Assembly: GCA_008632985.1 (NCBI GenBank)
Contig: QPGO01000052.1
Span: 372,001 to 436,000, forward strand
Length of the DNA: 64,000 bases
Source of the DNA: Psammoneis japonica
Lineage: Eukaryota
Direction of reading: 5' to 3'
Below the pieces are notes generated by a model. That model made no database searches and was not told where the DNA came from. It was given only the letters and a program-made list of their open reading frames with translations. Made by a program: the position numbers and the translations under genes. Positions 8,401-38,600 of the stretch are shown here, piece after piece (position 1 is the stretch's first letter; every line of letters begins with the position of its first letter).

Positions 8401-8850
8401 TGGCAGCACCATGAGCTCCACTTTGGAGAGTTGGAGAACAGTTTGGGGTGGACCAGAAGAAAGACAGCAGGCCGTGACAGTTGGAGCACAGTGTGCAACT
8501 CTGTTTCACCCATGGACTCTGTCATTTGCCCTGGGGCTTGGAAATCCTGCTTGCCATGTTGTCTGACACTCCTGATCCACTGTTGGCAGATGCATGTCTG
8601 CACTTGATGTGATTGAGATTCTTGCTGCTGTGAATCCCGCTCAGAGCAAATGAGCACTTTGGCTGTTTCCAAGCAATGTCCTCCATCCACATTGCTCCTC
8701 ATGGTAGGTCAGAATGATGTCATTGGGTGGCACTGCACTTCGTGTCCTGTCCAGGATGTGTTGGCTGAGAGCAAACAAGCTTCAGAGAAAGCATTTGCTG
8801 TGTTGACAAGATGAGGGTGCGCGAGCAAGAGTTCATTTTTGAGCCGGTAA
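5420..8850. repeat. TpA- and CpG-depleted degenerate block 1 (old TE/repeat-derived, family not identifiable)
   Basis: About 14 TpA by manual count in ~3.3 kb; strong TG/CA excess; many overlapping C/H/Q-rich ORFs with no recognisable domain. Confidence 0.7.
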
Positions 8851-13857: not shown

Positions 13858-14179
13858 GGAATTCAATCCGTAATTCTAGATTTTGAAAAAAAACAAATCT
13901 ATATGTCTGTGTTTATGGTACCCGTAAGTTACTTTCCGATTCCGCAACAACCCCCCGTGTCTATTCTCTCTCGAAAGTACTCGTTCAGATCAAAATTGCT
14001 TTTGCTCGCGTTGAGGAAGGTTGATGAAGTTACGAGCCGACTTCTCGTCTGTATCAAGACAAATCTTTCCTGTAAAATCAGAAGTGTCAACGCCAGTGTC
14101 ATTCTCCACCAACAAAGAGAAATTTGCAAGATTCTGTTTCGCATCCATCCGCCTTCGACAAGACTTTTATTGATGCCAT

Positions 14180-16220
14180 GGCAAAGGCTTCACTGGCAGC
14201 CCCTGCAATGTGTCCAATGGCTCAATGGCTGCCACCTGGACAGCTTCCATTTGAAGACCCATCCAACCCAGACCATTGTGACCCAAACAGTGAAGAGGTT
14301 GATGGTGAACCATGTTGGGTGAGCAAGACAGATGCAGTCAATCCATGTGACAATCACAGTGACAGCTCCTTCCAGCAAGCCCTGCACCATTCCATCTGCA
14401 ACTCTGTTCTGAGCAAATCTCCCAGCAATGTCCCAGTGCACCCACATCAGTGATGACATCTGTGCCATCACTTTCACATTTGACTGTCCCCTCAGGCATC
14501 CCTTTGTGGAGCCTGGCAAGGATCCATCAAATTTCTCTTCTCAGCCGAATGGTGCTGCATTGCTGACACTTTCAAAGGCTCCCTCAGATGCACCTTTTGT
14601 TGATTTCCTGAGCATGGCTCCTTGGCATTGCGCCATGGACAATTTCCTTCTCTGAGCCCAGCAAAGTGTCGTTGACAAAGGCATCTTCTTTGTGACCTCA
14701 GCAAAGGTGACATGTCTTTGACAAAACCCTTGGAAATGCCTTCTGTCACCACAACCACAGCTCTTTCTGCAGCAGGCCCAATGCAGTGCCATCAGTGGCC
14801 CCTTCAATGATGCCAACCTTTGACCCATCAAAAAACCAAGGGTGGACCCAGCACCCAGCAATGAGCCACCTGGAGCACCACAAAATGAAACCTCAGTCAA
14901 GTCCAGTGGCATTTTTTCGAGTTTGCCATCACTTTTTCCAAGGGGAGAATCTCTCAGCACTGTCCCCAATGCAGCTCCATTGATGACACCGTGTCACATG
15001 CCCAGTTTTGCATTTTGCACTCTCCACTCTCTGCAGCTCCTTTGTTGACTCCAAACAATGAGCTGACAAGCAAGCCAAGCACTGTGCTCCATCACATGAG
15101 CCATTTGTTGTTTCAAATGAGTGATCTCCAAGTGATGTCCCAACCAACAGACTAGCTGCCAGGGAGCTCAGCACACTGTTCATTCATTGGTGCCATGAAA
15201 AGCACCTGGCAGCATGCCACCTGTTTCAAAGTGGGAAAATCAGCTGACCTTCCAAGTGCAGCATCATCAAAAGAGACTTCTTTTGCTCTGCCCATGCTGC
15301 CTTCCACCAGTCTCAGTTGCCACCCATCAAAATCCCCTTTGTCATTTGTTTCCACAGTGCACTTGGCAACAAGTTTGCTTGGCAAAGCTCCCTCCACTGT
15401 GTGTGGCATCTTTCTCACTTGCAGCACACAGCCATCAGCGTCACTTTTGGTGTTGCCATTTTCCACAACTTTGAATGAACCAAGTTGGCACCTCAGCACA
15501 CAACTGTTGGCTGCACCTTCAACACCACCATCGTTTGCCCCCAGGAGAAATCCAGCCAACATTTCAAGGATGCTGGCATGCCAAGTGGAGCTCCACCTGG
15601 CAGTTCTGTTAGAAAGGCATCTGCCAAATCCATGCTGTGTGGTTGCAGACCCTTTTTTTGCATCAAGGTCTCCACAAGGGATCATGACTCCTCTGTGTCC
15701 ACCGCTTGCTGCAGCTTCCACACCCAAAGCAACAAGCAGGTGCACATCAAGGGCCAAGTTCTTCCACACAACATCAAAATCAGCTGCAGGGAGCATGTTC
15801 CTGCACCCAAAATTTGTTCGGGATCTTGGCTTCTGTGAGAATGCCACGAGCTGTTGAGAAGGGGCATTTGTTGTCGCTTGACCAGACCGCCCACACATCC
15901 AGTCCATCCAACACAGTGTTTGGCTTTCTTCCTTGTGTGCACCAAGAAGCAGCACATGTCGTCCACATCAACAACAAGGGTGCAACTGCCATTGGCAGAT
16001 GCCTGATTGGCTTGCAGCGCTGAGGAAGTTTTCACAAACAATGGGTCGCATGCACGCCATTCCCAAGAAAGGGGCTGCTGCGACATGCTGCCAGCATTGC
16101 AGGAACAAAAAACTCGCCCTCGATGCTGCCGCAACTGCAGACACATTGAAAGAACACCTCATAAAACAAAAAATGATGCAAAAGGTGTTCAAAGCGTGCA
16201 TCACCACTCACCACCCTCTT
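14180..16220. repeat. TpA/CpG-depleted degenerate block 2 containing decayed coding-like sequence (PSxxPS-like repeats)
   Basis: Very few TpA between 14.2 and 16.2 kb; fragments such as SKAPSDAP, PSVAPSMMP, PAPSNEPP in shifting frames. Confidence 0.6.
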
Positions 16221-19414: not shown

Positions 19415-22008
19415 GATATAACGTACTTTACCGGTAGCTGCAGTGTGCAGTGTTAGATTATGTTGGTGGATGCTTTGTGCCGTGTGCCGTTCGCAAAAGG
19501 AATCTTGATGTTGGACGTGTCGCTGCGGGCGGACGGGTACTGTGTGGGCTCATTACATTGTCTACGCAGGGCCTACAGTAAGTACGGTACCAGCACTGTA
19601 CAGTGCAGTCAAGATAAAAATTTTGATTTTTGATTTCACTTTTGTCATTCTCAGAGAGAAGGATGTCCACATTGTTCTTGGGCTTCGCGGTTTGTCTGCA
19701 CCAAAGACTTTGAACAATGGCGTCGATGGCTCAATGAGTTGTTTTGTCAAACTCAGAGGAAACCACCGATTTGATGGTGGTCAAGTGTGGGGTGAGATTC
19801 TTTCACACTTTCGAACAATGCAAGGGGGCTGACAAAAGGGTCGTTGCATCTGGGCCTGGCGAGACACTGGGCTGGGCCAAAGGAAAGCCACATCCTCAGC
19901 AAAACAGCTCACAAAAACCATTGCCACCAATCTTGGTTGGAATGCTGTCAATGGCGGCATTGTCAAGAAGGTGTTGGAGGGAACACACTCAAACTCTCTT
20001 GCACAACCACCTCCACCAATGCCGTTGCGGTCTGTGCAAACAATCTCAAGTGGAAAAAAGCAGAGTTTGCCAGCAGGTGCAAGCGCGTGGAATTTGAAAA
20101 GATGAGCTGTCCAAGAACGTTTTTGTTTGCAGCCTGTCCACAAGCTCATGTCAAGCAAATCAAGGCATGTGGGCCCTCTTTTCAAGGTCTGCCATGACTG
20201 CCCCTCTGATGATGAGCCTCAATGAGGACGTGTGGAGAAAAAAAGGCCAGCAGCACTGTTGGCTTTTTTGAGGGAGTCAAGCTGAAGGAATGAGGTGTTT
20301 CTTTGGACAATTTAGGGACAATGAGGGTTGGCAGTCATTGGGCGAGGTCAGCCTGTGGTCAGCCCCAAACCCTGACTTTGTCTTGCCTGTCTGTCTCTGG
20401 TCCGGTTGGGGGTCAGGGCAGGGAGGGGGAGATGCAGATGGATTGATGGGGGCTGATTGCTGTCAATGAATGGTTTTCTCACCAGAAATCATGCGTTCAC
20501 ATCAAGCTCCAACAAACTGCATCTTTGGCAGTCAGCCACTTTCATTTGTGACCCAGGTTTTGTAAAATTTCCACAGGCTCTGGTGGTGTGTTCCTGCAAC
20601 CTTGTGCAGGTCCAGCATGCTGCATCAAAAGCCTCATTCAGTTTGTTTTTCTCATGTTCATTTGTTTTATTTTGCATCTTGATGATGGGAAAAGAAACAA
20701 AATGAACAGCCAAAAAGGCAGGGCACTTCAGAGCCAGAAGACCAAGAGAGCCAAATTGAGTGTGAAGCAAAGAATCAGGCCAAAAGGAACATGCCACCAC
20801 CAGTGGCAGGCTCAAAAGAATTCCACATCTCTGCCATCATTTTCGTGACAGCAGCAAATGTTGGGTTGGACATGAGAACACTGTTGTGGCAACTTCCGGC
20901 AAGAAACCAAAATGTGAAATTGACACTCGTGCCTCCATCAATTTGGTTGAGAGGATGAAGAAATCACCAGAACTGAGCTTGATGAGAAAGACTTGTGGAT
21001 GCTGCAGAGTTCTTTCATCATGTTCCTCACAACATCAACTCAGACTGGTGGCATGTCACTTGCCAGGCCAATTTTGAGTGCTCTGTCCTCTTGCTTTGTT
21101 CAGAGAGTGAAAAGCATGCACAGTTTCTGGGCCATGCCAGCAATCCAGAGCAGTGCAAGACCAACTTGAAAAAATCCTTGCTCCTGTGAATCTGCTGGTG
21201 CACAGCTGCATCAGGCACATGTCAAGCAAGAACATGATGGTCACAAGAACAAGTGCAACTTGGTTCAAGGAACCCATCCATTGAGCCATGTCTGGGGCTC
21301 TCATTTGATTTGGTCATGGTCCATTCAAAAAGAATTCTGACACCAAGAAGCTGATGAAAGACTTAAAATGGAAATTGGTTCCAGCCCTGGCAAGGGTCAT
21401 TGAGCTTGAGAAAGACCTGCCAAGGCTTTTTTGATGCTTGGTTTGGGTCCAAGATCTTTGGAAATTGCAGTGCTTGTGCTCAGGTTTGAGCCTGCTTTTT
21501 GTTGGCAACAGGTTTGATTGCATGCTCATCAGATGTCACTCACTTCTGTCCTCATTTTGAGAACTTGGAGTGGCCTGCAGAGTCAAGGGACTGTCTCAAG
21601 GATGGGCTCCCAGTGTCTGTCATTGCAAGATTGATGGATTGGAAATCTTGGAAAGAGTGGCCTGAGCTTCTGTGTCTGGTGCATGTGCAAGGTGCAACTC
21701 CAAGCCAACACCAAAGATTTACAGTTTTGACTGCCCTGTCCATTGACTGATGAAACATTGGGAGCTTTGTGGTCACAAGCTGGGTCCGGTTGTGAGTGAG
21801 GTCAGAGGTCTTCAACATTTGTGAGACAGTTGAAGAAGTTGTTCAATGCTGGTCTTGGTGTGTGCTCCAGCCACTCCATGAGAAGATCTGCAGCACAGCA
21901 GGCTTGTTGTTGTGGTGCCAACATTGTCACAATTTGAGTTTTTGGCAGGTGACCCAGTTTGAAAAATCTGTTTCTGTGCATGTGCAAAGGTGAGAGGATT
22001 GGGCAAGA

Positions 22009-22284
22009 TGACAGGATTTGAACAGGATTTGGATGCGCGCGAAGCATCGCGCGCTGTTTAGTTTACCGCGCACAGTTTTGTGTGCTTTAGTTCCGCGCGT
22101 TCGCGCGCGATGTAGTTTGCTTTCGAGCCACAAGGCTCACAAGAATAATAACAGTAGCCCGATTATACCGACTTACACGTCTTTCGGCTCCTGTAACGGT
22201 CTCTGAGCAGAGACTCATCTGCTATTTAGACAGCAGTAAGGAGTTATTGTTTGAATTCTTGCCATTTGCCTTCATTTTCTGTCA
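22009..22284 (+). repeat. 5' LTR
   Basis: Aligns without gaps to 28876-29151; 10 mismatched positions, all transitions. Confidence 0.97.
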
Positions 22285-22301
22285 GATTAACAGTCTTGCT
22301 C
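22285..22301 (+). other. Putative primer-binding site complementary to a tRNA-Asn(GTT) anticodon arm
   Basis: GATTAACAGTCTTGCTC; reverse complement GAGCAAGA-CT-GTT-AA-TC reads as anticodon stem, loop and 2 nt. Confidence 0.6.
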
Positions 22302-23257
22302 ATTGTCAACCCATTGAGCAACCGCCATCGTCGTCGTTGATTTACCAACGACGCTATTTCAATTCTACGTGGACCTCCGTATATATTCTACATACATCGG
22401 CAAGTCTACGCGCATCCAATACCAGGGCATCGGCAGGAAGTTAACGTCACCGTCAAGTCTCCTTACCGCTGGATATCTGGATTGATTATACTACCTTTGG
22501 TCGCTGAAGACTTATATTCAACGGTCATATCCAAGTCTATCCTTGATCCTCATCCCTTGATATACCTATTCATCGGTTAACGGTCAAGAACCCTACATAT
22601 TCAAGGATCTTCGTCGCTGAAGACATGTGTATATATACATATCTTCACGGCCAAGAACCTGTACCCACTCTTCGGACTGCGGTTTTGCTGCCACTCTACA
22701 GGCACACCGAGTCCATTGTACCTGATCTACCCCGGACTGCTGGTGCTCTACAGTTCTACTAGGTCCACGAGGACGACTGTGAGAGCAAGCAGCCGTGATT
22801 GCAGCCTGCGTTGGGGCGAGGGTGCTTTCCCGCGTTTGTTCGTTCGTCCACAGCGCCTGACGCCTGCGTCAACTGGCCAGCCTGATCGGGAAATCCAACC
22901 GACATAAAATAAGAACGGTTCGGGGGTCTTGTCCACCTCCAGTCAGCTTGCCTGCAGGGGTTTACAACCCGCTGCTCCGCTCGCAAGCAACCCAAAGCGC
23001 CACCAGCTGCGGGTTCGGACGTGCCGGCACAACTCTACGGACCGGACAGGAAGTTTAGCACTTGACAACGAACGGGACAACAAAGCCCGGCGACTTCTGA
23101 TTTTTTTAAGACAGTTCAAGATTTCAAGTCAAGTCCATTTCAAGTCAAGTCCATTCTCACCCAAGTTTCAAGTCTGCCTTCGTTTTTCGAGTCCACCTTC
23201 GAGTCTGCCTTCGCTTCCCAATCAGAATTGATTGTCCTGACACCACTTTTGTCTGCC

Positions 23258-26200
23258 ATGGTTCTCACTCGTCAGCAACAAATCGATGGTTTTGAGCACG
23301 TTGTTGGAACCGTGCTTGCCCAAGGTGCTGGGAGTCCTCTTCGTTTGGCTTTGGCTCAAGACGGCACGGACTCGCATCAGGAACTGTTCACGTTCATGCC
23401 GTCCCAAATCGACTCGCTTGAGTGCGACAACGGCACCAATGTGGTCCCTTTGCCTCGTGGTTATAAGAACATGTTAGCAGCACCAGTTGGTCTGTGCATT
23501 GTCAAAGCACACAAAGGTCTTGACGTTGCCAACGACTCCTCTTTGTTCACGCATGACGAGTTCCTTGCCTGCCGCCTCAGCCCGGACTGCATGTCCTCTG
23601 TGTCCATCGGCAGCTCACCCCTTGCACCTCCACATGTCACCAACCCGACCAAGGCACGCGACCCGGTGCGAGACTTCAAGCGAGGCATCAAGCGTGATCC
23701 CACCGCTTTCACGGCTCTCAAATCCGACAAGCAGTGGCACACTTGGCACACCTCACTTGTGGCACAAGCCCGTGCCCAAGACGTCGAGTGCATTCTAGAC
23801 TCGTCGTGCAAACCAACCAGCCCCGAAGACAAACTGCTCTTTGCTGAACAGCAAAAGTGCATGTTCGCCGTCTTCGAACGCATCCTTCTCACCAACAAGG
23901 GCAAGGCTCTCATTCGCGAAAATGTGGGGTCTTCTGACGCACAGACCGTCTGCCGCTCCTTGTCTGAGTGCGCGCTTGCCTCCACCCGCGCATCCATCGA
24001 GTCCTCCACCCTGCTCACGCACCTCACCACCGCACGTCTTGGTGATGGCACTTGGAAAGGTCCAACCCACGGGTTCATCCTTCATTGGCAAGATCAGTTG
24101 CGCAAGCACGAGGCACTCATCCCCGCCAGTGACCACTTCTCTGAAGGACAGAAACGCGTCATGCTCGAGAATGCCGTGCACCCTGTCGAGGAACTCCATG
24201 CTGTCAAGAACCAAGCTGATCAGCATCGTACGCAGAGTGGCAAGAGCCTCACGTGCGATCAATGCTGTGGCTTGCTCCTCTCCGCGGCAGCTCAGCACGA
24301 CAGCACGTTTCAACCCAAGACGACACCTCGAGCTCCCCGATGCGCCATGTGCGCACACGACGTCCACTCCGAGGAACCGTCCGACGATGTGTTCTGCGAC
24401 ATTGACAGTGACGTTGACGTCCTTCAAGCCAATGCCACCTGCACCCGCGGTCCCAGCCTCACCGGTGTCCAATGGAGACGTCTCCCTCCCGACCACCAAC
24501 GGCTCTGGGATTCGTTGCCCGATTCCTCCAAGGCGATCATCCTTGAGCACTCTCGCCCGCCTCCCCACAACCCGCGAGCCAGCAACTGCCATGAGTCTGT
24601 TACGGCCAACCTTCACGACCAACACCTTGGGAGTGACGGTGATGTCAACTTGTCCAACACGACTCCTGCTGACTGTGGTGACTCCGCTGCACATGTGGAC
24701 GCCACTTCGGACAATCCCATCCTGGCGCACCTCACCAAGCGCAAGCCACTGCCACCCGGTGATCTGCAATGTCTGTTGTCTCCTAACCAAGCCCCCACTG
24801 CCAGTCGACCGGGGCCATCCGCCGCTTCCTCTACCCCGCCAGCTTCTGCAGATAACGTGGAACTTAACGGCCGCACTTGCCGCCGCGTTGACAACCACAA
24901 TGTCATTTACTCTGCCTCTGCTCATCGCTCCACACGCACTGGCGCTCTAGTCGATCGTGGGGCCAACGGCGGCATTGCTGGCGACGACGTTCGCGTCATC
25001 GCACGCACCTCTCGCCAAGTCGACGTTCAGGGCATTGACGACCATCAATTGGTGGACATCCCCATCGTCACCGCTGGTGCCGTCATTGAGACCCAGCGTG
25101 GTCCCGTCATCGCCATCCTCCATCAGTGCGCATGCACGGGAAAGGGCAAGACCATCCATTCCTGCGGCCAGCTCGAATGGCACAAACAGGATGTCAACGA
25201 TCGCTCTGTCAAGGTGCCCAACGGCTTGCAACGTATTGCCACTCCTGATGGCTGTGTCATCCCCATTGACATCAAGGCTGGCCTGCCTTGTGTTGCCATG
25301 CGACCTCACACTGACGCCGAATGGGACACCCTGCCCCATGTCATCCTCACCGGTGATGACACATGGGACCCTTCCGTCCTCGATCACTCTGTCACTGACG
25401 ACGACCAGTGGTACGACGCGATCTCTGACCTGCAGGACGATCCCACTGCCAACCCATTTGACGAATGCGGCAACTGCCGTCACCGTGTCGTTGTCAACGA
25501 GACCATCTTGTCCGCTTCCTTGTCTGACGATCACGCGTCCGCCCTCGATGATCACCTCATTCCGAACGACGACGTGTTCTACGAGTGTCATCTGCATGCG
25601 ATTGACCCCACGGGCGATGACGTTCCACCTCCGGAGCGCACTGTAAAGCCCAAGGACCCCCCCTTCGAGTCTCTTCGGCCTTGCTTTGGCTTCCTACCTG
25701 CCGACACGGTCCGTCGCACTTTTGACTGCACCACGCAGCATGCCCGCATGCCCGCCGGCACACACCTTCGCAAGGCCTGCAAATCACCCAACCCCGCCCT
25801 TAATGTGCACCGCCGCAACGAGCCTGTCGCCACTGACACCGTTTGTGCCGACACCCCGGCCGTCGACTCTGGTTGCACCAGCGCCCAACTGTTTGTTGGC
25901 ACCGAGTCTACCGTCACTGACGTCTGCGGCACTGAGACGGACAAAGAGTTTGTCAACACACTCGAGGATCAGATCCGTGAACGTGGTGCACCATCCAAAC
26001 TCATTGGCGACCGTGCTCAAGTTGAGATCAGCAACAAAGTGCTCGGGATCCTGCGCGCCCTCTTCATCTCCAGCTGGCAAAGTGAGCCTCACCAGCAACA
26101 CCAAAACTTTGCCGAACGTCGACACCAGACCGTGAAGCGCATGGCGAACACTGTCATGGACCGTTTTGGTTCGCCCGCCCACACATGGCTCCTGGCGCTC

Positions 26201-28928
26201 ATGTGCGTGTGCTTCACACTCAACCACACAGCGTCCCCACGTCTCCACTGGCGCACGCCCCTCGAGACTCTCACTGGATCCACCCCGGACATCAGCCCAT
26301 TGCTTCGCTTTCACTGGTGGGAACCAGTGTGCTTCCACCTCGATGACTCCGATTGGCCGTCCGAATCCCGTGAGTTGCGTGGACGCTTTGTTGGCATTGC
26401 TGAGCACGTCGGCCACCAGATGACCTTCAAGATCCTATCTGACGAGACTCAAAAGATCCTCTGCCGGTCCAACGTTCGCTCCGCTGCCCCCGATCCTGCC
26501 GTTCGAAACCTGCGTCTTGATCCTCCTGATGGGGAGCCACCTGAACCCATCATCAAATCTCGCCATGACGACAACCCCGTCGATTCTACTGATGGGGAGA
26601 TCAGGACACCCAAGATGCCAGTTTTCGATCCGCAAGACATCATTGGACGTACCTTCCTCATGCAGCCACAAGAGGATGGACAACGCCACAGAGCTCGCAT
26701 CGTCAAGGCCGTCGAAGACCACGAATGGAAAGTGAACGGCAATCCCGAGCTCACTAAGTTCGTCTGCTCTGTCAACAATGACGAATACGAGGAAGTCCTT
26801 GCCTGCAATGACATCATGAATCACATTGAGCAAGAAGACGAAGACACCACCATTTGGAAATTTCGACGCATCGTATCACACGAAGGACCTCTGAAGCCTC
26901 ACGACCCAACCTGGAAAGGCTCAAGCTACAACATCATGCTTGAATGGGAAAGTGGGGAGATCACGTCCGAGCCTCTTGCCATCATCGCCAAGGACGACCC
27001 CGTCACCTGTGCCATCTATGCACGAGAGAACGGACTCCTCGACACGGATGGCTGGAAGCGGTTCCGCACTATCGCGAGGCGCCAAAAGAAGCTATTTCGC
27101 ATGGCCAACCAAGCCAAGCTTCGCTCCTTCCGCACTGCACCTCGCTACAAGTGCGGATGCGAAGTTCCCCGGAACTACAAACACGCCATGTCACTAGACG
27201 AACGCAACGGCAACCGCAAGTGGGGAGACGCAACTAATCTCGAGATGGACCAACTCGACGAATACGAAGTCTTCCATGACTGCGGGCCCTTCAAGTCTTC
27301 CACTCCTCCTGCGGGACACAAGAAGATCCGAGTGCACCTGGTGTTCGACGTGAAACACGACGGTCGCCACAAGGCACGACTCGTAGCCGACGGGCACCTC
27401 ACGGACGTACCTGTCGACAGTGTTTACTCCGGAGTAGTCTCCCTCCGTGGCCTTCGGCTGATGATTTTCCTGGCCGAACTCAACGAGCTGGAGACATGGG
27501 CCACCGACATTGGCAATGCCCACCTTGAAGCCACCACCAAGGAGAAGCTTTACATTGTAGCTGGACCCGAATTTGGCAAACTCGAAGGACACATCCTTGT
27601 CATCCACAAGGCACTGTGTGGACTTCGCAGCTCCGGTCTCCGCTGGCACGAGCGCTTCGCCGACTGCCTGCGAGCTGAAGGCTTCTTCCCCTGCCGCGCC
27701 GAACCCGACATTTGGATGCGCAGGAACGGCGACCACTGTGAATACATTGGCGTTTATGTGGATGACCTCGCCATTGCCATGAAGGACCCTCAATCTTTCA
27801 TCGACACTCTCACGGAAAAGTGCAAGTTCAAGCTCAAGGGTGCGGGACCCATTGAGTTCCATCTGGGTTGCGACTTTTCCCGGGACCCCGACGGAACCTT
27901 GTGCCTGTCTCCGCGCAAGTACATCGAGCGCATGGTCGACAGCTGCACCCGATTGTTTGGGGAGAAACCTGCCACCAACGCCTTGTCACCTCTAGAGAAG
28001 GGTGACCACCCCGAACTGGACACTTCCGAACTGCTGGGACCCGATGGCATTCACAAGTTCCAGTCTCTTGTTGGTTCACTCCAATGGGCAGTGTCCCTTG
28101 GTCGAATTGACATTACCACGGCTGTCATGTCACTCTCTAGCTTCCGAGCTGCGCCCCGTCAAGGCCACTTGGATCGTGCCAAACGCGTCTGTGGGCACCT
28201 CTCCAAGATGCGACACGGTGCTCTCCGCGTTCGTACGGAAGAGCCCGACCATTCGGATCTCCCTGCTCCGGCCCCATGAATGGATGCATTCCGTGTGTGG
28301 TGAAGCAGAAGAGATGATCCCGAAGGACGCTCCACCGCCCCTTGGCAAGTTCGTCACTGCCACCCACTGCGTCGATGCAAACTTGTGCCATTGCATGCTC
28401 ACCGGACGCTCTGTCATGGGAATGCTCCACTTCCTCAACAAATTCCCGGCTGATTGGTTCTCCAAGAAACAAGCCACCGTGGAGACTGCAACCTGCGGAT
28501 CTGAATTTGTTGCCGCAAGGAATTGTGTCGAGCAGATTGTCGACCTGCGCATCACCCTGCGCTGCCTTGGCGTCCCGATCCGCAATGTCAGTTACATGTT
28601 CGGTGACAACAAGTCGGTTGTAGACAGTGCCACCATCCCGCACTCCAAGTTACACAAGCGACACACCGCACTGTCGTTCCACCGTGTGCGTGAGGCAATT
28701 GCCTCTGGTTGCCTTGAGTTCCACTTCATCGAGGGCTCCCGCAATCCTGCTGACATTCTCAGCAAGCATTGGGGTTGCTCCCAAATCTGGGACCTTCTCC
28801 GCCCTCTCATGTTCTGGAACTTCATCCCATCCGAAGTCGAATCTGTTTCTGTAGCTCCTCAAGCAAACTGGGGAGTGACAGGATTTGAACAGGATTTGGA
28901 TGCGCACGAAGTGTCGCGCGCTGTTTAG
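23258..28928 (+). pseudogene. Copia gag-pol polyprotein with one frameshift (~28273) and many Tyr->Cys/His substitutions
   Basis: Protease ALVDRGANG; integrase VATDTV..SEPHQQHQNFAERR; RT HLVFDVKHDGRHKARLVA, DIGNA, GVYVDDL; RNase H VDANL..GSEFVAA..FGDNKS..NPADILSK in the 28002..28928 frame. Confidence 0.93.
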
Positions 28929-29151
28929 TTTACCGCGCACAGTTTTGTGTGCTTTAGTTCCGCGCGTTCGCGCGCGATGTAGTTTGCTTTCGAGCCACAA
29001 GGCTCACAAGAATAATGACAGCAGCCCGATTGTACCGACTTACACGTCTTTCGGCTCCTGTAACGGTCTCTGAGCGGAGACTCATCTGCCATTTAGACAG
29101 CAGCAAGGAGTTGTTGTTTGAATTCTTGCCATTTGCCTTCATTTTCTGTCA
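28876..29151 (+). repeat. 3' LTR
   Basis: Direct repeat of 22009-22284 followed by TSD CAAGA. Confidence 0.97.
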
Positions 29152-32100
29152 CAAGAGAAGAGCCTTCATGACAACAACTGTGACCCAATTTGGGACATGT
29201 GGGTGTTCCACACCAACACGCCAGGTGCCCATGAACAATTTTCTGGCAGTGGTTGAAAATTAGAAAAATTGAAGTGCTTTGTTGGTGCTGATCACAAAAC
29301 CAGTGTGCACGCTGCTCCATTGCCAAGCACTTGCACACCATTGCTGGCATTGTGTGCTTTTCAATTTTTTGTGGTCAACACAAAAGGAACACTGTGCATT
29401 GCAAATCTCTGATTGCATCATGCCATGAAGTTCTGGGCTTGTGGGATGTGCCAAGTTTTCTCAGATTTGAAATGTTCTGTTTTGGAGTTGTCGGGTTGTT
29501 GTCTTTTGGCACAGTGCAAACTGCACAGTGTGCCATGCACCACAAACTGAATTTTGAATTGTGACTCCTTTTCTGTTCTGCTTTTTTCCCTGCTTTTTTC
29601 ATCCCATGGTCTGCAAGGAGAACGCACATGATTGTCTTTTTTGTCCACAAACTTGTCCTCAAACACCCGCGCAAGTGCCGTTGCATGCATCTCATTGTCA
29701 CATTTGTGCAAATTTGGAACAGTTTCTTTTTTGCGGCAGGTCCAAGACAATGGAGCATTCATGTCCAGTCTGTGTGTCAAGCAGATGAGGGCGTTGCACC
29801 CTTCTGGTGCTGCATTTGGCAGCACTTGCACAGGTCCTTCTTCCTTCCCTGGTCTCAACTCTGGACAGCACAACAGACACCCAGTTTTTGTGCACAGCTT
29901 CAGTGGTGAACAAACAGCTGGTGACTGCTGTCACTCCCTTCCAGCTTCTTGTGTCCTGCAGCATCATCAATGACAAATGCAGCTTGTTTTGCTTCTTTGA
30001 GGCACACAACACTCCTGGTGTCTGCAGGAAGTTGCTCTTGATGCAATGCTTGAGCACAGCATCACCTGCTCAGTTTGCAGCTGCAGCTGGCAAAGCACAA
30101 AGGCCACTTTGCTGGGTTGTTGCTGGAGGGCATCTGCAACCCAGGGTTCATTCTACCTTCTCTTGATTCTGTGCCTCTTTCTTCACATTTTTTCCACAGT
30201 GTCTTGTGTGTTGAAAAGGCCAGCACTCTTGTGCCATCACACACATTCACGCAAGTTGTCATCAAATGTTGTCATTGAAGTGAGCACTTTGCCATCTCCA
30301 CTGTGCAGCTGCCTCACTCTTTTTTCAAAGCATGCTCCTGTGTTGATGGAGTCTTTCTCCTTGTTCCCACATGTTGTGTGTTTGGTGTGTGTGAGGCAGC
30401 TGCTGACCATGTGCAATGACTCTCTTGCTGCCAACAAAGTTGGTGTCTGCCACAGCAACAATGTCTCCATCTTAGAAATGACTCAGCAGCCCCAGCAATG
30501 TTCCATCTCAGAAATGTTTCAGCAGCCCTCTGCCCCATTCTGAATCATCTTTCAAAATGTTGTGCATGCCACAGAGCTTGGTGCCACCAGCAATTGACCC
30601 ATTCAGCATGTCTCTCCCTGCAAAGTGGGTGCACATTTTTCCCTGCTTGTGGGCTGGCTCTGGCTCTTTTTTTTGAAGTCACCTGCAAAAAAGTGTTTGA
30701 GCCTTGGCAGGGCTTGCCTGAGTGCTATTCTCTGATGTGCAGCCACATTCTTGCAAACCTTTTTCAAGCTCTTTCAGCATAAAAGGAAGTCTCATCCACC
30801 ACCACAGGTGTGCGTGACTCCATGCTTCAGTCTTTGCTTTGGCAATCTTTTTCTTCCTGTTGCTTTCAGAAAGCCACCCTTTTCTCCTTGATGAACAGCA
30901 CTGCCTTTGAGGACAATTGTGGTGACTCCAGCTGCTGCTGTGTCTGTGACAGCACATGAGTTGTGAGAAAAGCTGATTCATGAAAGAGCAGCATTCTCTC
31001 ACATGCTGAACTGCCAGACCAGCCACTCTTGTTGGCTTGTGACTTTTTCTTGTTCTGTGCAAAAAGATGCCAGCTGGGTGGCACCTCATTTCATTGCTTC
31101 AACAACAAGCCTGGCAGCAACCAGTTTGTGGCAGCTCTTGCTGTGAAACAACACCTGGTTGAGCCTCTCCTGTTGCTGCTGGTCTGTTCTCAAAAACTCC
31201 CAGCTGTCATCTCAAAGCAGCACAGCTTTGTTGGTGTGTGGGTGTGTGGGTTGGCTTTTGTTGACCAGCTGGCATGCTGGTGCAGGGCAGCAGCAAAGAC
31301 TGCTCTGCCAGGCCAACCACAACTTTAGCTGGTCTCTCATTTTTGCAGCCAATTTGGCACATTGCTGCTGTGAGGGATCACCCTTGCTCTGCAACCTTCA
31401 CAAATGCACAACACAAGGTTCTTCCAGAATGTCTTGTGGGGGCTGGAGAGGGTCAACAAGTCTCTTGCTCCATGCACACATGCCTGCAAGTTGCCACCAA
31501 ATGTTGCCATGGAGCTGAGCTCTTCTTTGCCATCTTTTTTGTGCAGCTGTTTCCAATTTTTTTTCAAACAATGCCATGTTTGTGGAGCCCCTGTCACCCT
31601 TGTTTCTGCCAAGTGCTGTGTGCTTGGTGTAATTGTTCAGCAGTTGTTGACCATGTGTGATGTTGTTTGTGTCTGCAAGATCCACATGACCACCTCAGAA
31701 ATGTTCCAACACTCTGCTCCACTCTGGATCTTCTTTGAATCTGTGCATGCCTCACAAAGCTCACTCTGCTCAGCTGCTGACCTGGCCATGCTCTTGACAA
31801 AATTCCACACACGTCTTTTCTTGTGAAGGGGTCAGTGCACTTCTTTTCCCACTGACTCCAACTGTTTCTAAAGTTGTCCACAAAAAGGTATTTTGCATGC
31901 AGTTGTGGCAGCAAAGAGCTGCTAGATGGCTTTCACATTGCTTTTGTGTGCCAAAGGTCCATGCTGTCCACCCATCTGCAGAGCTTTGTGCAGCCTTGGA
32001 GTTGCCACAATCTTTGTGTGCTGTGCATGGAGGGCCCCCAGTGTGTGTGCTCAAATGTCAGACTTGAGTGTTGCTGCATCAAGTGCTCCCATCAAAAACA

Positions 32101-33535
32101 CAGCAAACGCCACCACTCTCGCCATCATTCAATGTGGCATGTGTTGAACCACAGCTCCAGCAGCTGCTGCAATCAAAAAATTGGGTGCTGTTGTCGTGAG
32201 ATTGCCAAGTGGAGCGATGGTTGAAAGTTCTCCACACCAAGTGTCAACTCTTCCAAGGAAGAGGTCTGGCAAGCTTTGAAGAAGTGGGAAAGCTTTGCAA
32301 GGAAACATGGGTGCTTGTCATCTCCACATTGGCAAAGCTCATGTGGTGGCTGAGTTGTCAGCAGCGATGCTGCACCAAGGCTCTCAGTGATGACAAAATC
32401 AAAAAGTCAGACAGCACTTGATGCATGGGTGTGTCCAACAAAGTGTCAGAACACAAGACCACAAAAGACAAGGCACTGCGGTCATGGCTGTTGAGGCAGA
32501 AGAGGCCAACAAGCAAGAGAGGGGTGAAAATGGGCACACAGAGCTGTGTGAGGTCTCGACATTGACCTGTCTTTTTCTGCTGCAAACGCCAACAAAATGC
32601 AAATCACCCATGAAAACAAGGGGCTGTGGGCAGTGCATTGCAAAGAGTTGTGAGAGAGGTTTGTCAATGGAGTGGATGCTGCAACATTCCTCAAAGTGGC
32701 CCTGTGTCAGGGGTGGGCGTGGGTCTCCAGCCAGCATGAAAGGAAGGGGATGGTGGGTCAATTGCCAAATGAAGAAGTCAGAGAAATTTGGGCTTGTGTG
32801 GACAGCAAAGCACAGCTGGGGGGTGATCCAAAAACATGAAAGGCACCTGTTTGCAGAAAAATCCACGGCATCTGCTTTTCAACATGGCTGTTTTACCAGC
32901 AAAGCATTGTGATCAGGGTCTGACAATTGTGCACAAATGATGGATGAGCTTGCACTTCTCTTTTTCTCTTTGAGTCATTTTGTTGCGCACCAGGGGAGTG
33001 GTCACCAACCTTCCACAGCTCTGCAAGAGTGTTCAATGACAGGCTGTGTCCAGTCTGCCAATGTTGTTGAGCTCATGCGCATCTTTGCAAAGAACCCATG
33101 CACAGAATTCTAGCTGCACTGGTCAAGCCAACACAACCACGGGTCAAATGCCGTTTTAGAGGTTTGTGTTGGCCCTGAGAGCACGATCACCCTTCACATG
33201 TTTAGGACGGGAAAGGCACGAATTGGTGACAAGTGACAGGTAGAGTGATGTCCATCAAGATCAGAATTCGAAAGTCGAAGGTGTTCAAGAACCATGTTTT
33301 CCATTGTAGAAGTGTTGAATCGCCATTGTGATCATCTGTAAATCTTTACTAGAAATACACAACAGTTGGCATTACGAGTATCTTCATCACAACCACTATA
33401 TTTTGGAAAGAAAAGGGACCTAAAACTCGAGTAGCTAAATTTTAAAAACAACAAAAGGAGAAAAAAGTCGACGTCCACTTGTCTCTGCCATCTCTGTAGT
33501 AGCAACGAAGAACGAAGACTTCTTCGCGAAACCCT

Positions 33536-35639: not shown

Positions 35640-38600
35640 AACCCATGACATTTTTTGTGATTTCGCTGCTGTTTGTGCTGCACTTGATTCTCATAACTTG
35701 CCTGCTTTAACTTTGCTCATTCTTGACAGATTGAAGAGCATCGGACACCCCCTGGTTGTGAGAAATTGATGCAGCAACTCCTTCCTGCTGACACCTTGTC
35801 AAAAGCAACCTTGTTTCACTTTGCTGCCGCTGCTGCTGCACTCTGCAAAAGTGTGCAATGCACGCAAGTTCTCCCAAACAACTGCACCTCTGATTGCTGC
35901 TCACATTTCTCTTTTGTAATTGTGCTGTAAATCTGGTGCTGCAACCGCCACACTTTGGAAAAGCTGAGAAAAATCCGGCAGAGATGAGGCTGCTCTTGCC
36001 TCAAAATGTTTTGAGCAACTGCCAGGGTTGCTGACTGCAGCAGCACCCTCTGCCACAGGTCTCATCTCAAGTGGTGTCATTGGCATCTCAAGCAGCAATG
36101 TTGCGCCCCAAGTTGTGTCTCACATCTCATCTTTTTGCCTTGACAGGAGGTGCCATCTCATCTTGAGTGGTGTCATTGTGCATTTTCTCTCATTGAGTTG
36201 CATCATCTTGTCTCATCTTGAATTGCATCATCTTTGTGAGGCAGCGCCATCATCTTTTCTCAAGTCATGTTGTCTTGTCTCATGGTGTCGGCCTTCTTGT
36301 CACATTTCAAGTTGAGCCATCTCTTCTTGAGTGACACCAACTCTGCTGCAGGTCTTGTGTTTTGAGTGCATTGTCTTTTCTCAAGTCATTTCAATTCTGC
36401 TGCAGGTCTCATCTTAAAATGTGTGATCTTTTCTTGGCACTGGTGCCATTGCATGTCATCTACTCTTGAATGCACTGTCCTGTCTGGAGCCATCTTCTGC
36501 AGTCCTGAGTTGCACCATCTCTTCTCAAGTCATGCCACCAGGCACAGCTGGCAGCCCTGTTTGGATCTGCTGCAGCTCCTGCTGCTGTTCTTTGGAACTG
36601 CAACGGCAAGTTACACCTCCATGTAAATTTGAAGGCCAAACACTTTGTGGTGCTTGTCGTGAGTGAAAAATCTCCTTTTTCTTGTTGTTTGGCAATGTTG
36701 TGCATTGTGGGACAGTGTGCTGGTTGGAGTCAACAGGACAATGTCTGTGCTGCTTCAATGTGCCCCACAACACAAGAGCTGTGGCCACAGCAACTCTGCA
36801 CTCATGTCTGTGCTGCTTCTTTTAGCATCTCTGCTCTCTCTCTCTCTCTCTCCACTTGGTTCTTCTGCTTGCACTGGCAAAATGGTTGTTTGTTCATCTT
36901 GTTCTTTCTTTAGAACATTTGCAAGTGTGATGCTCCCCTTTTTGACAAGGAAACAGTCTTGTTGCCTGTTTGCAAGTGTTTGCTTGCAAGCTTGGGACAG
37001 CCAAATGTTGCTGCGCTGCATTTGTGATTGCTTTTTCCACCCACCACACCACTGGACATGTGTGCTGTCTGAGTCAGACCAGCAAGTGGGGGCACTGGCA
37101 AAGGGTTGTCCAGCAGAGTTGTTGCCCTCCTTGTTTGTGGCAATGTGACTTCCACTTCCATCACCACAGCTCAAACATTTTCTGTCCTCCAGTTTGCTTT
37201 GCACTTGATTTTTTTTGGAGTGACATGGCTGCCCTCTTTTCTTCTGCTGCTGGTGGCTGGCCAAGTTTTTTCAAAAGTCTGCATCAGTCTAAATGTGCCA
37301 AATTCTTCATCATTGCTGACACTTGTGTTGTCTTCCATTTGTTGCAATGGCCCCACAGCATTGAGGGAGAAGCTTCAGAAACGCTGTCACACAGCCTGCT
37401 TTCCACTTGAACAAAGCGGCCAAGTCCAGTTGTTGAAGAGCTTCATTTCATCTGGGTGGGCCATGTGAAGGAGATGCCCTTTCAGCTTCATTTGTCTTGC
37501 TGTGCTGGCAATGGCACATCCTCATTGAGCTTGGGGTGAGGTTTGCTTTCTTTGACAAACTTTGCACTGCAGCCAAGGGGTCCAATTCCTGCTGCAGCAA
37601 AATTGCCACCAGTTGAAACAGCAACTGATCAACATTGTGTTCAGGAAATGGATTGCAGCCAAACAACTTCAGTGCTTGCAGATGGGCTTGGTCAACATGG
37701 GCGCATGCAGCACTGAAAAAAATGTGGAAATTCCTTCTTCTTCACTCCCGCATTGATGCTGCACCAGTGTGTGACAAGGACAAGCAAGAAGCACTCCACC
37801 CCAGTGCCAATGCCATGAGGTCAAAAGGCCACCCTCATCTTTTCTGACACATTTTCCCCAAGCTGTCAAAGTTCTGCTCAAGCTTTGATTGGTGTGTCCA
37901 TGCCTCCTTCAACAAGAGGCACGCAACAGTCAAGTTGCGGACTGCCAAAATGTCACCCCACTCTTTTTGTAAATGACAGCGGGCAAACCCAAACTTGCCT
38001 TCACCAACATGCAATTTTGGAGTGAAAGTGATCAAGAACATTCTCAGGTCTGTGATGCCACAGTGGTGTGGTGCCAGAAATTTTGTCTTTGCCACAAAGA
38101 ATCATCAAGGTCTGAATTGAGAGCAGCCCAGATCACCAAGCGACTGACCCACTTCAACAGATTGCTTGTTTTGGCATCAGCAGTGGATGATGGTGCAGCA
38201 CATTCAGTCAACCCAACTTCTGTTCAGTCTGTGGTGCATCTCATTGGAGTTGCTCTTGTCATCCCCAAAAGGATCACAAAGCCAGTGCTCTTGTCAAGTG
38301 CATGATGTGTCAACAGCAGAGTCATTCTTGTCTGCACTCTTGTCATTTTTCTGCATCCACCCCATCTGCCATGCTGCAATGCTTGTTGTGTCCTGCACAG
38401 GCATTTGCATTCTCCCAGCTGCTCTCTGTGCTGTGTTTGTGGTGTCATTTGTTTCAAGTGCACCACTGGCAGCATCTGGGTCATTTTCTGCATTCTGAAC
38501 ATCACATTTGTCATGTCTGCTGCACCCATGTGGTGTGGAGTGCTGCATCAGCTTTCTGCTTGAGTCATCTGCAGTTGCTGCTGCACTTGCTTGCAAGAAC

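Follow-up and report, generated by a model that had tools for sequence, protein, structure and literature searches.

TpA-step differences between the LTRs of a Ty1/copia-type retrotransposon in a pennate diatom, Psammoneis japonica, are consistent with TpA-specific hypermutation of repeats

A Ty1/copia-type element in partly TpA-poor DNA

The window analysed here, a stretch of 64,000 nucleotides of the P. japonica assembly GCA_008632985.1 (contig QPGO01000052.1, positions 372,001 to 436,000), contains a full-length Ty1/copia-type LTR retrotransposon of 7,143 bp (22009-29151) with a 5-bp target duplication (Table 1). We found a single pair of direct repeats, which align without gaps, and assigned the element by these repeats with TG..CA ends, the short target-site duplication, and a copia-type reverse transcriptase (Pfam RVT_2). 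The coding region as a whole spans 23258-28832 (tblastn of relatives) and is interrupted by a one-base frame shift at ~28273-28275 (tblastn with P0003 and P0008); one base is missing in the family contigs at 28272, 28275, or 28276. The polyprotein ORF, P0001, comprises 1,737 codons with zero stops and aligns over its whole length with relatives of 1,700-1,900 aa, whose sole precomputed Pfam domain is likewise RVT_2, and the reverse transcriptase occupies its last quarter, as expected with an integrase upstream. The best named matches of the methylcrotonyl-CoA carboxylase beta in the window are pennate diatoms (68-78% identity).

The element resembles the Ty1/copia (Pseudoviridae-like) elements of diatoms, presumably those of the 'CoDi' groups, in its TG..CA LTRs, 5-bp duplication, single long gag-pol frame, and RVT_2 near the C-terminal third, and marine and freshwater metagenomes contain hundreds of relatives, at 55-66% identity. 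It departs from them in that P0001 is an outlier in Tyr content (0.86% vs. at least 2.86% in the best 120 relatives), gives no Pfam-detectable integrase or gag domain (no rve or gag_pre-integrs match at E ≤ 0.01), and is followed by the frame shift described above.

Table 1. Features of the element and its surroundings, and positions at which the two LTRs differ (5' LTR coordinates).
Feature	Position	Strand	Remarks
Low-TpA / low-CpG block	5553..8704		composition
Low-TpA / low-CpG block	14169..16161		composition
Left flank, older block	19616..22008		nearly TpA-free, also CpG-free from ~20.7 kb; element inserted into it
Left target-site duplication	22004..22008	+	CAAGA, identical to 29152-29156
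5' LTR	22009..22284	+	276 bp, TG..CA ends; 15 TpA (o/e 0.81), 21 CpG
LTR difference, G (5' LTR) vs. A (3' LTR)	22039		CG vs. CA
LTR difference, CA (5' LTR) vs. TG (3' LTR)	22045-22046		ambiguous step
LTR difference, A (5' LTR) vs. G (3' LTR)	22150, 22165, 22246		TA vs. TG
LTR difference, T (5' LTR) vs. C (3' LTR)	22155, 22223, 22237		TA vs. CA
LTR difference, A (5' LTR) vs. G (3' LTR)	22209		CA vs. CG
Leader / 5' UTR	22285..23107	+	TA-rich: 44 TpA, o/e 0.91; lightly affected
Polyprotein frame (gag to RT)	23258..28273	+	alignment starts at the first residue of the relatives; TpA o/e 0.08-0.32
RVT_2 reverse-transcriptase domain	27308..27943	+	P0001 residues 1415-1626, PF07727, E 7.4e-27, 94.9 bits
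Polyprotein C-terminal part (RNase H side), next frame	28275..28832	+	tblastn of P0003, P0008: frame 2 then frame 3
Purine run, polypurine-tract-like (putative function)	28870..28875	+	GGGGAG; abuts 3' LTR
3' LTR	28876..29151	+	276 bp; 9 TpA (o/e 0.53)
Right target-site duplication	29152..29156	+	CAAGA, read from sequence
Right flank, TpA- and CpG-free block	29157..32893		TA o/e 0.07, CG o/e 0.03 at 30-32 kb
Largest low-TpA block	35929..48236		36-41 kb also without CpG; composition
Copia remnant, gag_pre-integrs	44471-44944	+	domain match; sole recognisable one in the 35929-48236 block
TpA lost, CpG still held (putative earlier stage)	62133..64000		54 CG in 62133-63316; composition

Depletion of TpA is restricted to part of the window and is bimodal; 101 of 256 intervals of 250 bp hold at most one TA (39.5% of the window is nearly TA-free), whereas the others hold a mean of 10.1. 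The total of pyrimidine-purine (YR) steps per 250 bp is nearly the same in the TA-poor and the other class (60.5 and 60.7), with TA down and TG/CA up in the former. Repeats in the window have a TpA o/e of 0.02-0.3 and genic DNA one of 0.5-0.7 (0.49-0.64 for the genic stretches at 48-62 kb), and the stop triplets at 36-48.3 kb number 673 TGA, 30 TAA, and 19 TAG. The eroded blocks are putative old mobile elements; only 1 of the 109 ORFs in them still matches a transposon family. Within the element, the switch is sharp at ~23108, with a TpA o/e of 0.08 at 23108-24750 vs. 0.91 in the adjoining leader, and the GC content of the body is 0.55-0.59 vs. ~0.48 for the window. By comparison, 79 related metagenome elements have a median TpA o/e of 0.74 (minimum 0.43), and none of these contains a 1-kb stretch below 0.2.

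We placed the contigs of a public run, which may be the assembly's own data, on the window. The element family is very abundant in the genome: 14,660 contig pieces match the element at 80-100% likeness, and the summed contig depth is ~56,000-216,000 over the element vs. ~50-500 on its flanks. Contigs stop at 22008 and 29152, and neither a read nor a contig bridges unique flank into an LTR. Among the 40 of 642 family-variable places that were listed, 24 lie inside the element and none in an LTR, and it is mainly at TA/CG/TG/CA steps (19 of these 24) that the copies differ from the window; transversions account for 106 of 635 variable places among the copies. The leader is polymorphic for TA/TG/CA at 22515, 22627, 22629, 22739, and 22760, and CG/TG/CA polymorphism among the copies is also present. 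At 24107-8, the mutated state is found in 13 of 13 family contigs. The same contigs reproduce the TA/CG-free flanks (684 bases with seven other letters in record 8; 393 with three in record 6), with small gaps between window and contigs which indicate that the assembly is not error-free.

Spectrum and direction of change

The original prediction described two LTRs of 276 bp that differ by 10 transitions and no indels, and our recount agrees with it at every coordinate and base. All 10 differences fall in TA, in CG, or in the ambiguous CA/TG step at 22045-6, vs. 0 of 200 positions elsewhere. The six sites described as having TA in the 5' copy and TG or CA in the 3' copy of the LTR are indeed so arranged, with the TA state on the 5' side in 6 of 6 cases (chance (1/2)^6, one-sided), and their enrichment is unlikely to be due to chance (30 of 276 positions in TA, binomial P(≥6 of 10) = 2.3e-4; 42 of 276 positions and P = 1.5e-3 if the opposite direction is assumed). 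Two to four of the 10 differences are due to another process, the decay of CpG, and we propose that the CG-type differences represent decay of the methyl-CpG type in both LTRs. Such decay (CpG→TpG/CpA) explains 22039 and 22209, the two certain sites, possibly the ambiguous 22045-6, the near absence of CpG from the oldest low-TA blocks (CG o/e 0.03-0.3), and the CpG depletion of some related elements (CG o/e 0.22-0.23 in L004, L006, and L069); it cannot, however, explain the loss of TpA. As the coding region of the element has a TpA o/e of 0.08-0.32 while its CpG o/e still stands at 0.75-0.99, the process that removes TpA is the faster of the two.

For polarity, we compared P0001 in an alignment with 106 relatives, each 1600 aa or longer, and scored the columns that are at least 80% conserved, 544 of which are kept in P0001 and 61 changed. 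Conserved Tyr residues are kept at only 10 of 34 positions, the other 24 having become Cys (12, TAY→TGY), His (7, TAY→CAY), Phe (4), or Trp (1), whereas 93.5% of the conserved non-Tyr residues are kept; P0001 has thus lost 71% of its conserved Tyr vs. 6.5% of its other conserved residues, against means of 7.9% and 6.6% in the relatives. TpA→TpG/CpA alone accounts for 24 of the 61 changes in conserved columns. At 44 columns with a Tyr majority in at least 60% of the relatives, P0001 has Cys 18 times and His 10 times, and its composition is 0.9% Tyr, 3.1% Cys, and 4.5% His vs. means of 3.86%, 0.90%, and 3.53%, respectively, in the relatives. This alignment shows that the direction of change in the ORF is from TA to TG or CA. 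The direction that had been proposed from the LTRs is supported by this polarisation, by the depletion of TpA with an excess of TG/CA, and by the published spectrum of Bigelowiella natans considered below. Two further expectations were also borne out, namely that both strands are struck (three A→G and three T→C in the LTRs; 18 Cys and 10 His in the Tyr-majority columns) and that the 3' LTR is struck harder (6 to 0, given the TA→TG/CA polarity), which fits the TA map of the element, the 3' LTR adjoining the TA-poor body and the 5' LTR the TA-rich leader. The six TA-type differences are most simply read as post-insertion hits on the 3' LTR, with the polarity taken from the ORF rather than from the LTR sites themselves.

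Codons 348 and 411 are independent double hits, with CAC in the window, TGC in the family contigs, and Tyr in the outgroups (98/106 and 89/106, respectively). The family consensus, which had been put forward as the reference that could overturn the TA→TG/CA direction, is unsafe for this use, as the family majority at these two codons is itself mutated where the outgroups have Tyr. Since the majority is already mutated at some sites, some of the TA steps missing from the body were lost before the insertion, and their loss was inherited. A change of TA to TG or CA removes TAA and TAG and makes no stop, and frames therefore stay open while Tyr is replaced by Cys or His. An open frame is thus no proof of an intact gene; here, all 1,737 codons are open although 71% of the conserved Tyr residues are gone.

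Probable TpA-directed hypermutation and its alternatives

We consider it probable that this genome applies a TpA-specific transition hypermutation to repeated or foreign DNA, and that this accounts for the TpA loss in the element, the six TA-type LTR differences, and the eroded blocks. On either strand, the adenine in TpA would be converted to G, so that TA becomes TG or CA; the action would be patchy, striking the coding region and the 3' LTR while almost sparing the 5' LTR and the leader; and the slower, ordinary decay of CpG to TG/CA would come second, leaving old repeats with TG and CA as their sole pyrimidine-purine steps. The element would sit within such an older, fully eroded repeat of a pennate diatom. 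This would also explain a class of sequence that makes up much of the window and defeats homology searches, kilobases long with no pyrimidine-purine steps other than TG and CA. A TadA/ADAT2-type adenine deaminase would be a candidate agent; in tRNA, such an enzyme naturally acts on U33-A34, which is a UpA step. The 6 to 0 asymmetry of the LTRs and the sharp switch at ~23108 tell against this reading.

A TpA-only process has so far been reported in one unrelated alga, B. natans, in which it was measured in 2026 (Mettrop et al., bioRxiv 10.64898/2026.01.13.699255). In that preprint, 231 of 302 new mutations in a mutation accumulation experiment fell in two integrated viral regions, and 230 of these 231 changed A→G or T→C, each of the 230 at a TpA; 211 mutations on 6,169 TpA arose over 3,132 generations, vs. 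a baseline rate of 3.5e-10 (10.64898/2026.01.13.699255). A process of the B. natans type would be expected to operate on chromosomal DNA, over cell generations, at no less than 1e-7 per site, for which the LTR pair in the diatom is only indirect evidence. As described there, B. natans shares with our element the spectrum (A→G or T→C alone, restricted to TpA, with TpG or CpA as the product on either strand) and the confinement to foreign-DNA stretches with sharp borders and raised GC; reverse transcriptase and DDE domains are over-represented among its low-TpA coding sequences, and a TadA/ADAT2-like deaminase was proposed (10.64898/2026.01.13.699255). In the diatom, 6 of the 10 LTR differences are of this type, 19 of the 24 changed conserved Tyr residues became Cys or His, the direction leads away from TpA and raises GC (outgroup polarisation of the ORF; GC of the body), and the changes are confined to stretches, with the adjacent host genes unaffected. 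By analogy with the mutation accumulation in B. natans, we infer that the process may act on integrated DNA after insertion. The two cases differ in host (a pennate diatom, Stramenopiles, vs. a chlorarachniophyte, Rhizaria), in target (a very high-copy LTR retrotransposon family vs. single-copy giant-virus and virophage inserts), and in extent (near-complete erosion, TA o/e 0.02-0.09 over kilobases, vs. 0.45 for the B. natans NCLDV insert); moreover, CpG loss accompanies TpA loss here, unlike in the B. natans account, and the process is deduced here from sequence whereas it was measured there in real time. The words diatom, stramenopile, LTR, retrotransposon, and CpG are all absent from the preprint text (10.64898/2026.01.13.699255), and our literature search found no report of TpA-specific hypermutation in diatoms.

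TpA hypermutation could be real and the LTR differences nonetheless imported, either through ectopic gene conversion of one end or through polishing or consensus mixing in the assembly. The family offers ample material for this, given its very high copy number (depth and contig pieces as above) and copies that differ mainly at these very steps; contigs end precisely at the LTR borders, which leaves the copy-specific alleles to rest on assembly, the element alternates between TA-rich and TA-poor segments, and the gaps in the flanks point to assembly errors. We nevertheless regard an imported origin as unlikely, since the six TA-type sites all point one way and the intact, identical 5-bp duplication opposes whole-element exchange; that 0 of 10 differences are transversions or non-YR transitions is weak evidence in the same sense (0.83^10 = 0.16).

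Editing during retrotransposition, with an APOBEC3-like deaminase acting on RNA and/or minus-strand cDNA so that copies integrate already edited, seems to us improbable. Reverse transcription makes the two strands in an established order, in which the 3' LTR has its minus strand left single-stranded the longest and could take late hits that the 5' LTR escapes, and the extra hits are indeed all in the 3' LTR (6 to 0); mutated states common to most copies at some sites (e.g. 24107-8) likewise suggest that edited copies or their descendants kept spreading. Action on the minus strand alone, however, would give only plus-strand T→C, as opposed to the three T→C and three A→G in the 3' LTR and the 18 Cys and 10 His in the ORF, and the B. 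natans spectrum appeared in vegetatively growing cells, in DNA that was integrated and single-copy (10.64898/2026.01.13.699255). In addition, to lose nearly all TA across 12 kb of old sequence demands a persistent process or many cycles. The known enzymes APOBEC3 (C→U, minus-strand cDNA) and ADAR (A→I, double-stranded RNA; an animal family) provide deaminase-type, transition-only, context-dependent hypermutation of retroelements in animals, but they work on intermediates of replication and leave their mark on one strand, whereas here both strands are about equally affected and non-coding relics are eroded to saturation. ADAR-type hyper-editing passed on through reverse transcription, which predicts sense-strand A→G only and identical LTRs, was rejected, as both A→G and T→C occur and the LTRs differ. 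ADAR is described as preferring a 5' U, i.e. UpA (Discussion of 10.64898/2026.01.13.699255).

We attach very little credence to a non-mutational origin of the low TA content, be it selection against UpA in the element RNA or mis-called modified bases in silenced repeats. UpA is reportedly under-represented in most coding RNAs, but selection of this kind would not swap 24 of 34 conserved Tyr residues, nor would it act on non-coding relics in all frames; methylated motifs are mis-called in some long-read chemistries, but the TA/CG-free flanks are reproduced by the public-run contigs (records 8 and 6), and ~50x contigs of up to 315 kb would imply accurate reads, with the reservation that the run may be the assembly's own data.

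Fungal RIP is alike in being repeat-directed, transition-only, and dependent on dinucleotide context, in ruining transposon genes, and in involving the same four dinucleotides, yet it is opposite in direction and chemistry, making TpA from CpA, lowering GC, and creating stops, whereas here TpA is destroyed, GC goes up, and stops cannot arise. Action of a RIP-like process on cytosines of the 5' LTR (CpA→TpA), with TG/CA ancestral and TA derived, would suit the high copy number of the family, the six sites (TA vs. CA/TG, dinucleotides that RIP interconverts), and the fact that the LTR pair by itself gives no direction, but it is scarcely credible and was rejected, given the depletion of TpA in repeats (o/e 0.02-0.3 vs. 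0.5-0.7 in genic DNA), the raised GC of the body (0.55-0.59), the lack of any stop in 1,737 codons, the near absence of TAA and TAG from the blocks, and outgroups that show Tyr→Cys/His and not the reverse.

A possible genome defence and the age of the element

Beyond this genome, we suggest tentatively, and with more doubt than confidence, that diatoms possess a B. natans-like, adenine-directed, TpA-specific defence that is old, SAR-wide or wider, is aimed at chromatin or transcription domains, and leaves 'zombie' frames in its wake. If so, the targeting of such domains would explain the sparing of the 5' LTR and leader next to an eroded body and 3' LTR, and, with no stop ever created, long open 'zombie' frames would persist; mutated copies could keep spreading from these frames, by which gene finders and LTR clocks would be misled throughout diatom genomes. 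P. japonica would be a second, phylogenetically distant host of a process known from a single 2026 preprint, and this process, at present a peculiarity of one species, would become a candidate for a genome defence widespread among eukaryotes; diatom model species are routinely transformed and knocked out.

That LTR dating overestimates age in this genome, the last claim of the original prediction, is supported by the finding that 0 of 10 differences lie outside hypermutable steps; the element looks far older than it is. A rough extrapolation from the B. natans data gives a rate of ~1e-5 per TpA per generation, at which the six hits among 30 TpA would take ~2e4 generations, vs. the ~5e7 generations given by the conventional LTR formula with the baseline of 3.5e-10.

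The element and its LTR pair

A repeat search of the 21–30.5 kb interval returned a single long direct repeat (276 nt, 96% identity), whose two copies align without a gap, begin with TG and end with CA. Since the pair also has CAAGA on both sides, the element is the product of a single LTR-element insertion. A script count found exactly 10 base differences between the LTRs, all transitions, so that the length, number, sites and bases described in the original prediction were correct in every detail and the observation is real (see table). Six of the 10 are TA-type: the 5′ LTR always has TA, opposite three TG and three CA in its 3′ counterpart. The LTRs hold 15 vs. 9 TpA (5′ vs. 3′; TpA observed/expected ratio, o/e, 0.81 vs. 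0.53). TpA covers 30 of the 276 LTR positions, and six or more of 10 differences would fall there with a binomial P of 2.3e-4 (1.5e-3 with the opposite direction of change); no difference lies in the 200 positions outside TA/CG steps and the 22045–6 step. If TA was the ancestral state, six TA hits fell on the 3′ LTR and none on the 5′ LTR (seven and one, respectively, if 22045–6 was also TA), in line with the earlier claim that the 3′ LTR was hit harder; the CG-type changes are divided equally between the two. The TA hits are also distal within the LTR (0/5 TpA before 22149 vs. 6/10 from 22149 on, Fisher P about 0.04), and the asymmetry matches the copy map, in which the 3′ LTR continues an eroded body and the 5′ LTR a TA-rich leader. 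This leader holds 44 TpA and ends in a sharp TpA border at about 23108, beyond which CpG o/e in the body is still 0.75–0.99.

Coordinates of the element, its LTR differences and the features around it
Feature	Position	Strand	State or value
Flanking CAAGA, left	22004–22008		
5′ LTR	22009–22284	+	
Leader	22285–23107	+	TpA o/e 0.91
Stop-free frame	23066–28276	+	1,737 codons
Element body	23108–24750		TpA o/e 0.08
Element body	24751–26500		TpA o/e 0.19
Element body	26501–28250		TpA o/e 0.32
Element body	28251–28875		TpA o/e 0.13
3′ LTR	28876–29151	+	
Flanking CAAGA, right	29152–29156		
LTR difference	22039		5′ G / 3′ A; CG in 5′ LTR vs. CA in 3′ LTR
LTR differences	22045 and 22046		C/T and A/G (5′/3′); CA vs. 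TG step
LTR differences	22150, 22165, 22246		A/G (5′/3′); TA vs. TG
LTR differences	22155, 22223, 22237		T/C (5′/3′); TA vs. CA
LTR difference	22209		5′ A / 3′ G; CA in 5′ LTR vs. CG in 3′ LTR
Low-TpA block	5553–8704		Dinucleotide profile
Low-TpA block	14169–16161		Dinucleotide profile
Low-TpA block	19616–22008		Dinucleotide profile; left flank of element
Low-TpA block	29157–32893		Dinucleotide profile; right flank of element
Low-TpA block	35929–48236		Dinucleotide profile
Low-TpA block	62133–64000		Dinucleotide profile
gag_pre-integrs match (PF13976)	44471–44944	+	E 1.4e-6
Methylcrotonyl-CoA carboxylase beta gene	51417–53177	−	One uninterrupted frame

As a control, we searched 79 loci of related metagenome elements, 39 of them at least 5.5 kb long, and found terminal repeats in 14/39. 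Nine of the 14 were 100% identical contig-end overlaps of 103–127 bp; the five differing pairs held 46 substitutions (5/46 TA-type) and 5 indel columns, a weak control in that these repeats may be assembly products.

The body carries a long stop-free frame whose product (P0001) has a copia-type reverse transcriptase domain (RVT_2, residues 1415–1626, 94.9 bits) and no further Pfam domain at E ≤ 0.01. Its relatives in public metagenomes number more than 1,500, the best 120 being 55–66% identical across residues 600–1737. By tblastn with two relatives, their first residue aligns at 23258, and after a one-base frame change near 28273–28275 another 186–214 residues align to 28832; in some contigs of the family a single base is missing, at 28272, 28275 or 28276. 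The element is thus a retrotransposon of the Ty1/copia type, full-length and interrupted by one frame shift. The shift at 28272–28276 cuts off the last ~190 polyprotein residues and could be a real mutation or an assembly run-length error. Stop-free frames of 383 codons overlap on both strands at 23795–24950, and many others lie inside the element; open frames here are no evidence of genes, because they are a by-product of TAA/TAG loss.

The family is clearly very abundant. When its contigs from four public sequencing runs of one sample were matched to 21000–30200, summed contig depth, which is not a copy number, was about 56,000–216,000 over the element vs. about 50–500 on the flanks; the 14,660 contig pieces comprised 3,666 of at least 99% likeness, 4,653 of 95–99%, 4,512 of 90–95% and 1,829 below 90%. 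No other copy was found within the 64-kb window (tblastn of P0001, blastn self-comparison). In one contig, 22304 is followed directly by 23003, with 698 leader bases missing between them, and some copies may be without this TA-rich segment. Among the variable places in these contigs (642 in all), the 40 listed lie outside the LTRs. The abundance of the family leaves room for another origin of the LTR alleles, the main alternative: they could have been imported, by gene conversion or assembly polishing, from copies that vary at these hypermutable sites. In the four runs, no contig was found to bridge unique flank into LTR, contigs ending instead at the LTR borders. Such import concerns the LTR evidence only.

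Direction of change in the coding region

To polarise the changes, we aligned P0001 with 106 of its 120 best relatives, namely those that reach 1,600 aa; the 14 shorter ones were left out. Where columns were at least 80% conserved among relatives, P0001 keeps 544 and changes 61. It retains just 10/34 conserved Tyr, having changed 24 (12 Cys, 7 His, 4 Phe and 1 Trp), vs. 82–100% of conserved columns kept for every other residue type (lowest Lys, 27/33). In a leave-one-out comparison, the changed share in P0001 was 71% for conserved Tyr and 6.5% for the remaining conserved residues (relatives' means: 7.9% and 6.6%), and TpA→TpG/CpA can by itself account for 24/61 of its changes. A Tyr codon yields Cys by TAY→TGY and His by TAY→CAY, so TA was the ancestral step and the hits fell on both strands; in the 44 columns where at least 60% of relatives have Tyr, P0001 has 18 Cys and 10 His. 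This outgroup polarisation supports the original prediction both in its implied TA→TG/CA direction and in its claim that both strands were affected.

The Tyr content of P0001 is 0.86% vs. at least 2.86% in the others, making it the sole Tyr-poor protein among the 121 compared, and the 79 related metagenome elements have a median TpA o/e of 0.74 (minimum 0.43), with no 1-kb window below 0.2. One relative from another environmental assembly (P0073, 57% identical to P0001; Tyr content 2.86%) has a milder signature, with 7/39 conserved Tyr as Cys and 4/39 as His, and from this protein the process may also operate in other organisms. Five of the related loci (L004, L006 and L069, also L026 and L041) are strongly depleted in CpG (o/e 0.22–0.44) with TpA o/e of 0.43–0.60; since these loci are CpG-poor yet TpA-keeping, CpG decay occurs in other hosts without the TpA process.

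Codons 348 and 411 read CAC (His) in the window and TGC in the family contigs (24107–8 in 13/13 contigs; 24296–7 in 23 and 22 contigs with nearly all depth), while the outgroups have Tyr in 98/106 and 89/106 cases, respectively. One ancestral TAC has therefore been hit oppositely in different copies, and by the same token the CA/TG step at 22045–6 is readable as an ancestral TA that would have been hit once in each LTR, ancestral CG being the alternative. The family consensus is thus an unsafe polariser here, since the majority can itself be mutated. At some sites a mutated state is common to most copies; either mutated copies have kept spreading or depth weighting misleads.

Low-TpA blocks and the host genome

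By dinucleotide profile, the window consists of two kinds of sequence: genic stretches (e.g. 48–62 kb) with TpA o/e of 0.49–0.64 and CpG o/e of 0.90–1.08, and blocks with TpA o/e of 0.02–0.09, CpG o/e of 0.03–0.34 and CA/TG o/e of 1.7–1.95, in whose raw sequence the pyrimidine-purine steps are almost only TG and CA. At most one TA occurs in 101/256 windows of 250 bp (39.5%; mean 10.1 TA in windows with at least four), and 43 of these 101 also have at most two CG. Pyrimidine-purine steps per 250 bp number 60.5 ± 4.2 and 60.7 ± 4.2 in these two window classes (at most one TA and at least four, respectively), which is what transitions alone would produce, TA and CG becoming TG or CA. Some blocks without TA keep CG (0 TA and 54 CG at 62133–63316), which places TpA loss earlier and CpG loss later, the oldest parts of the blocks being poor in both. 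Stops on both strands are TGA-dominated at 36–48.3 kb (TGA 673, TAA 30, TAG 19) vs. 48.3–62 kb (503, 228 and 265, respectively).

Both flanks of the element are TA- and CG-free, and the element was therefore inserted inside an eroded block. A 494-base contig of one run (X1) differs from the left-flank relic (21513–22008) at 12 letters, including 21721 (TA vs. TG), 21663 (TG vs. CG) and 21677–8 (TG vs. CA), and may stem from another allele or from a paralogue that varies in a similar way. Among 109 ORFs (at least 100 aa) from low-TA blocks, Pfam gave one credible match, to gag_pre-integrs and exactly at the curated cut-off, the rest having none or falling below it. This match hints at another copia-type element, older than the first, in the 41–48 kb block; the blocks may all be old mobile elements, but only 1/109 ORFs still matches a copia domain. 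Comparing the element with the eroded blocks by BLAST after purine/pyrimidine recoding gave no signal (best 81 bits vs. 87 in a shuffled control), and seven pairs of old internal duplicates in the blocks (55–71% identity; 21 CA/TG steps vs. 174 concordant, plus 115 transversions) are too diverged for a spectrum to be read.

The methylcrotonyl-CoA carboxylase beta gene has its best named homologues in Seminavis robusta (78%) and Nitzschia inconspicua (74%), with others in Cylindrotheca, Amphora, Pseudo-nitzschia and Mayamaea (best unnamed, 82% identical); the named taxa are pennate diatoms. Host genes at 494–19549 and 48428–60945, which include this gene, an NS-type endonuclease, a DJ-1/PfpI protein, TAF6 and an MFS transporter, are mostly single uninterrupted frames, and the genome between the eroded blocks is intron-poor and gene-dense.

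The probable eroding process, its precedent and LTR dating

The best-supported reading is that integrated repeats would undergo TpA-specific A→G hypermutation, patchily and on either strand, and that ordinary CpG decay would then follow more slowly. We observed its spectrum, direction and patchiness, and its restriction to non-genic blocks; its probable action on the chromosome, once the repeats are integrated, is based on the LTR pair together with an experiment in Bigelowiella natans. In a 2026 preprint on mutation-accumulation lines of this alga, two integrated viral regions accounted for 231/302 new mutations; A→G and T→C made up 230/231 of these, every one of the 230 being on TpA. Per-site rates were near 6e-7 each generation, and the effect was seen in some lines only (10.64898/2026.01.13.699255). 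According to the same preprint, reverse transcriptase and DDE domains are enriched in low-TpA coding sequences, and an ADAT2-like deaminase is proposed; a deaminase is likewise our candidate agent. The words diatom, stramenopile, LTR, retrotransposon and CpG are all absent from the available text of that preprint (10.64898/2026.01.13.699255), and the literature searched, whose coverage leaves out most subscription journals, yielded no account of diatom hypermutation directed at TpA. The host there belongs to Rhizaria, whereas ours is a pennate diatom (Stramenopiles); this diatom carries a TpA-eroding process that has been described once before, in a distant alga, and is not categorically new.

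If replication intermediates were edited, a bias towards the 3′ LTR would be expected, but neither an equal share of hits on the two strands nor relics eroded to saturation would. The depleted TpA in the blocks, the TGA-dominated stops and the outgroup Tyr→Cys/His changes contradict a RIP-like CA→TA change. A base-calling artefact is contradicted as well, and so is selection against UpA.

The raw LTR divergence of 3.6% (K2P 0.038) says little about age because all ten differences lie in hypermutable steps, and the expectation that LTR dating would overestimate age in this genome is supported on the same ground. As an extrapolation only, the figures in the available B. natans text (211 mutations, 6,169 TpA, 3,132 generations) would correspond to about 1e-5 per TpA per generation, at which it would take about 2e4 generations for six of 30 TpA to be hit; with the B. 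natans baseline rate, the conventional calculation would give about 5e7 generations.
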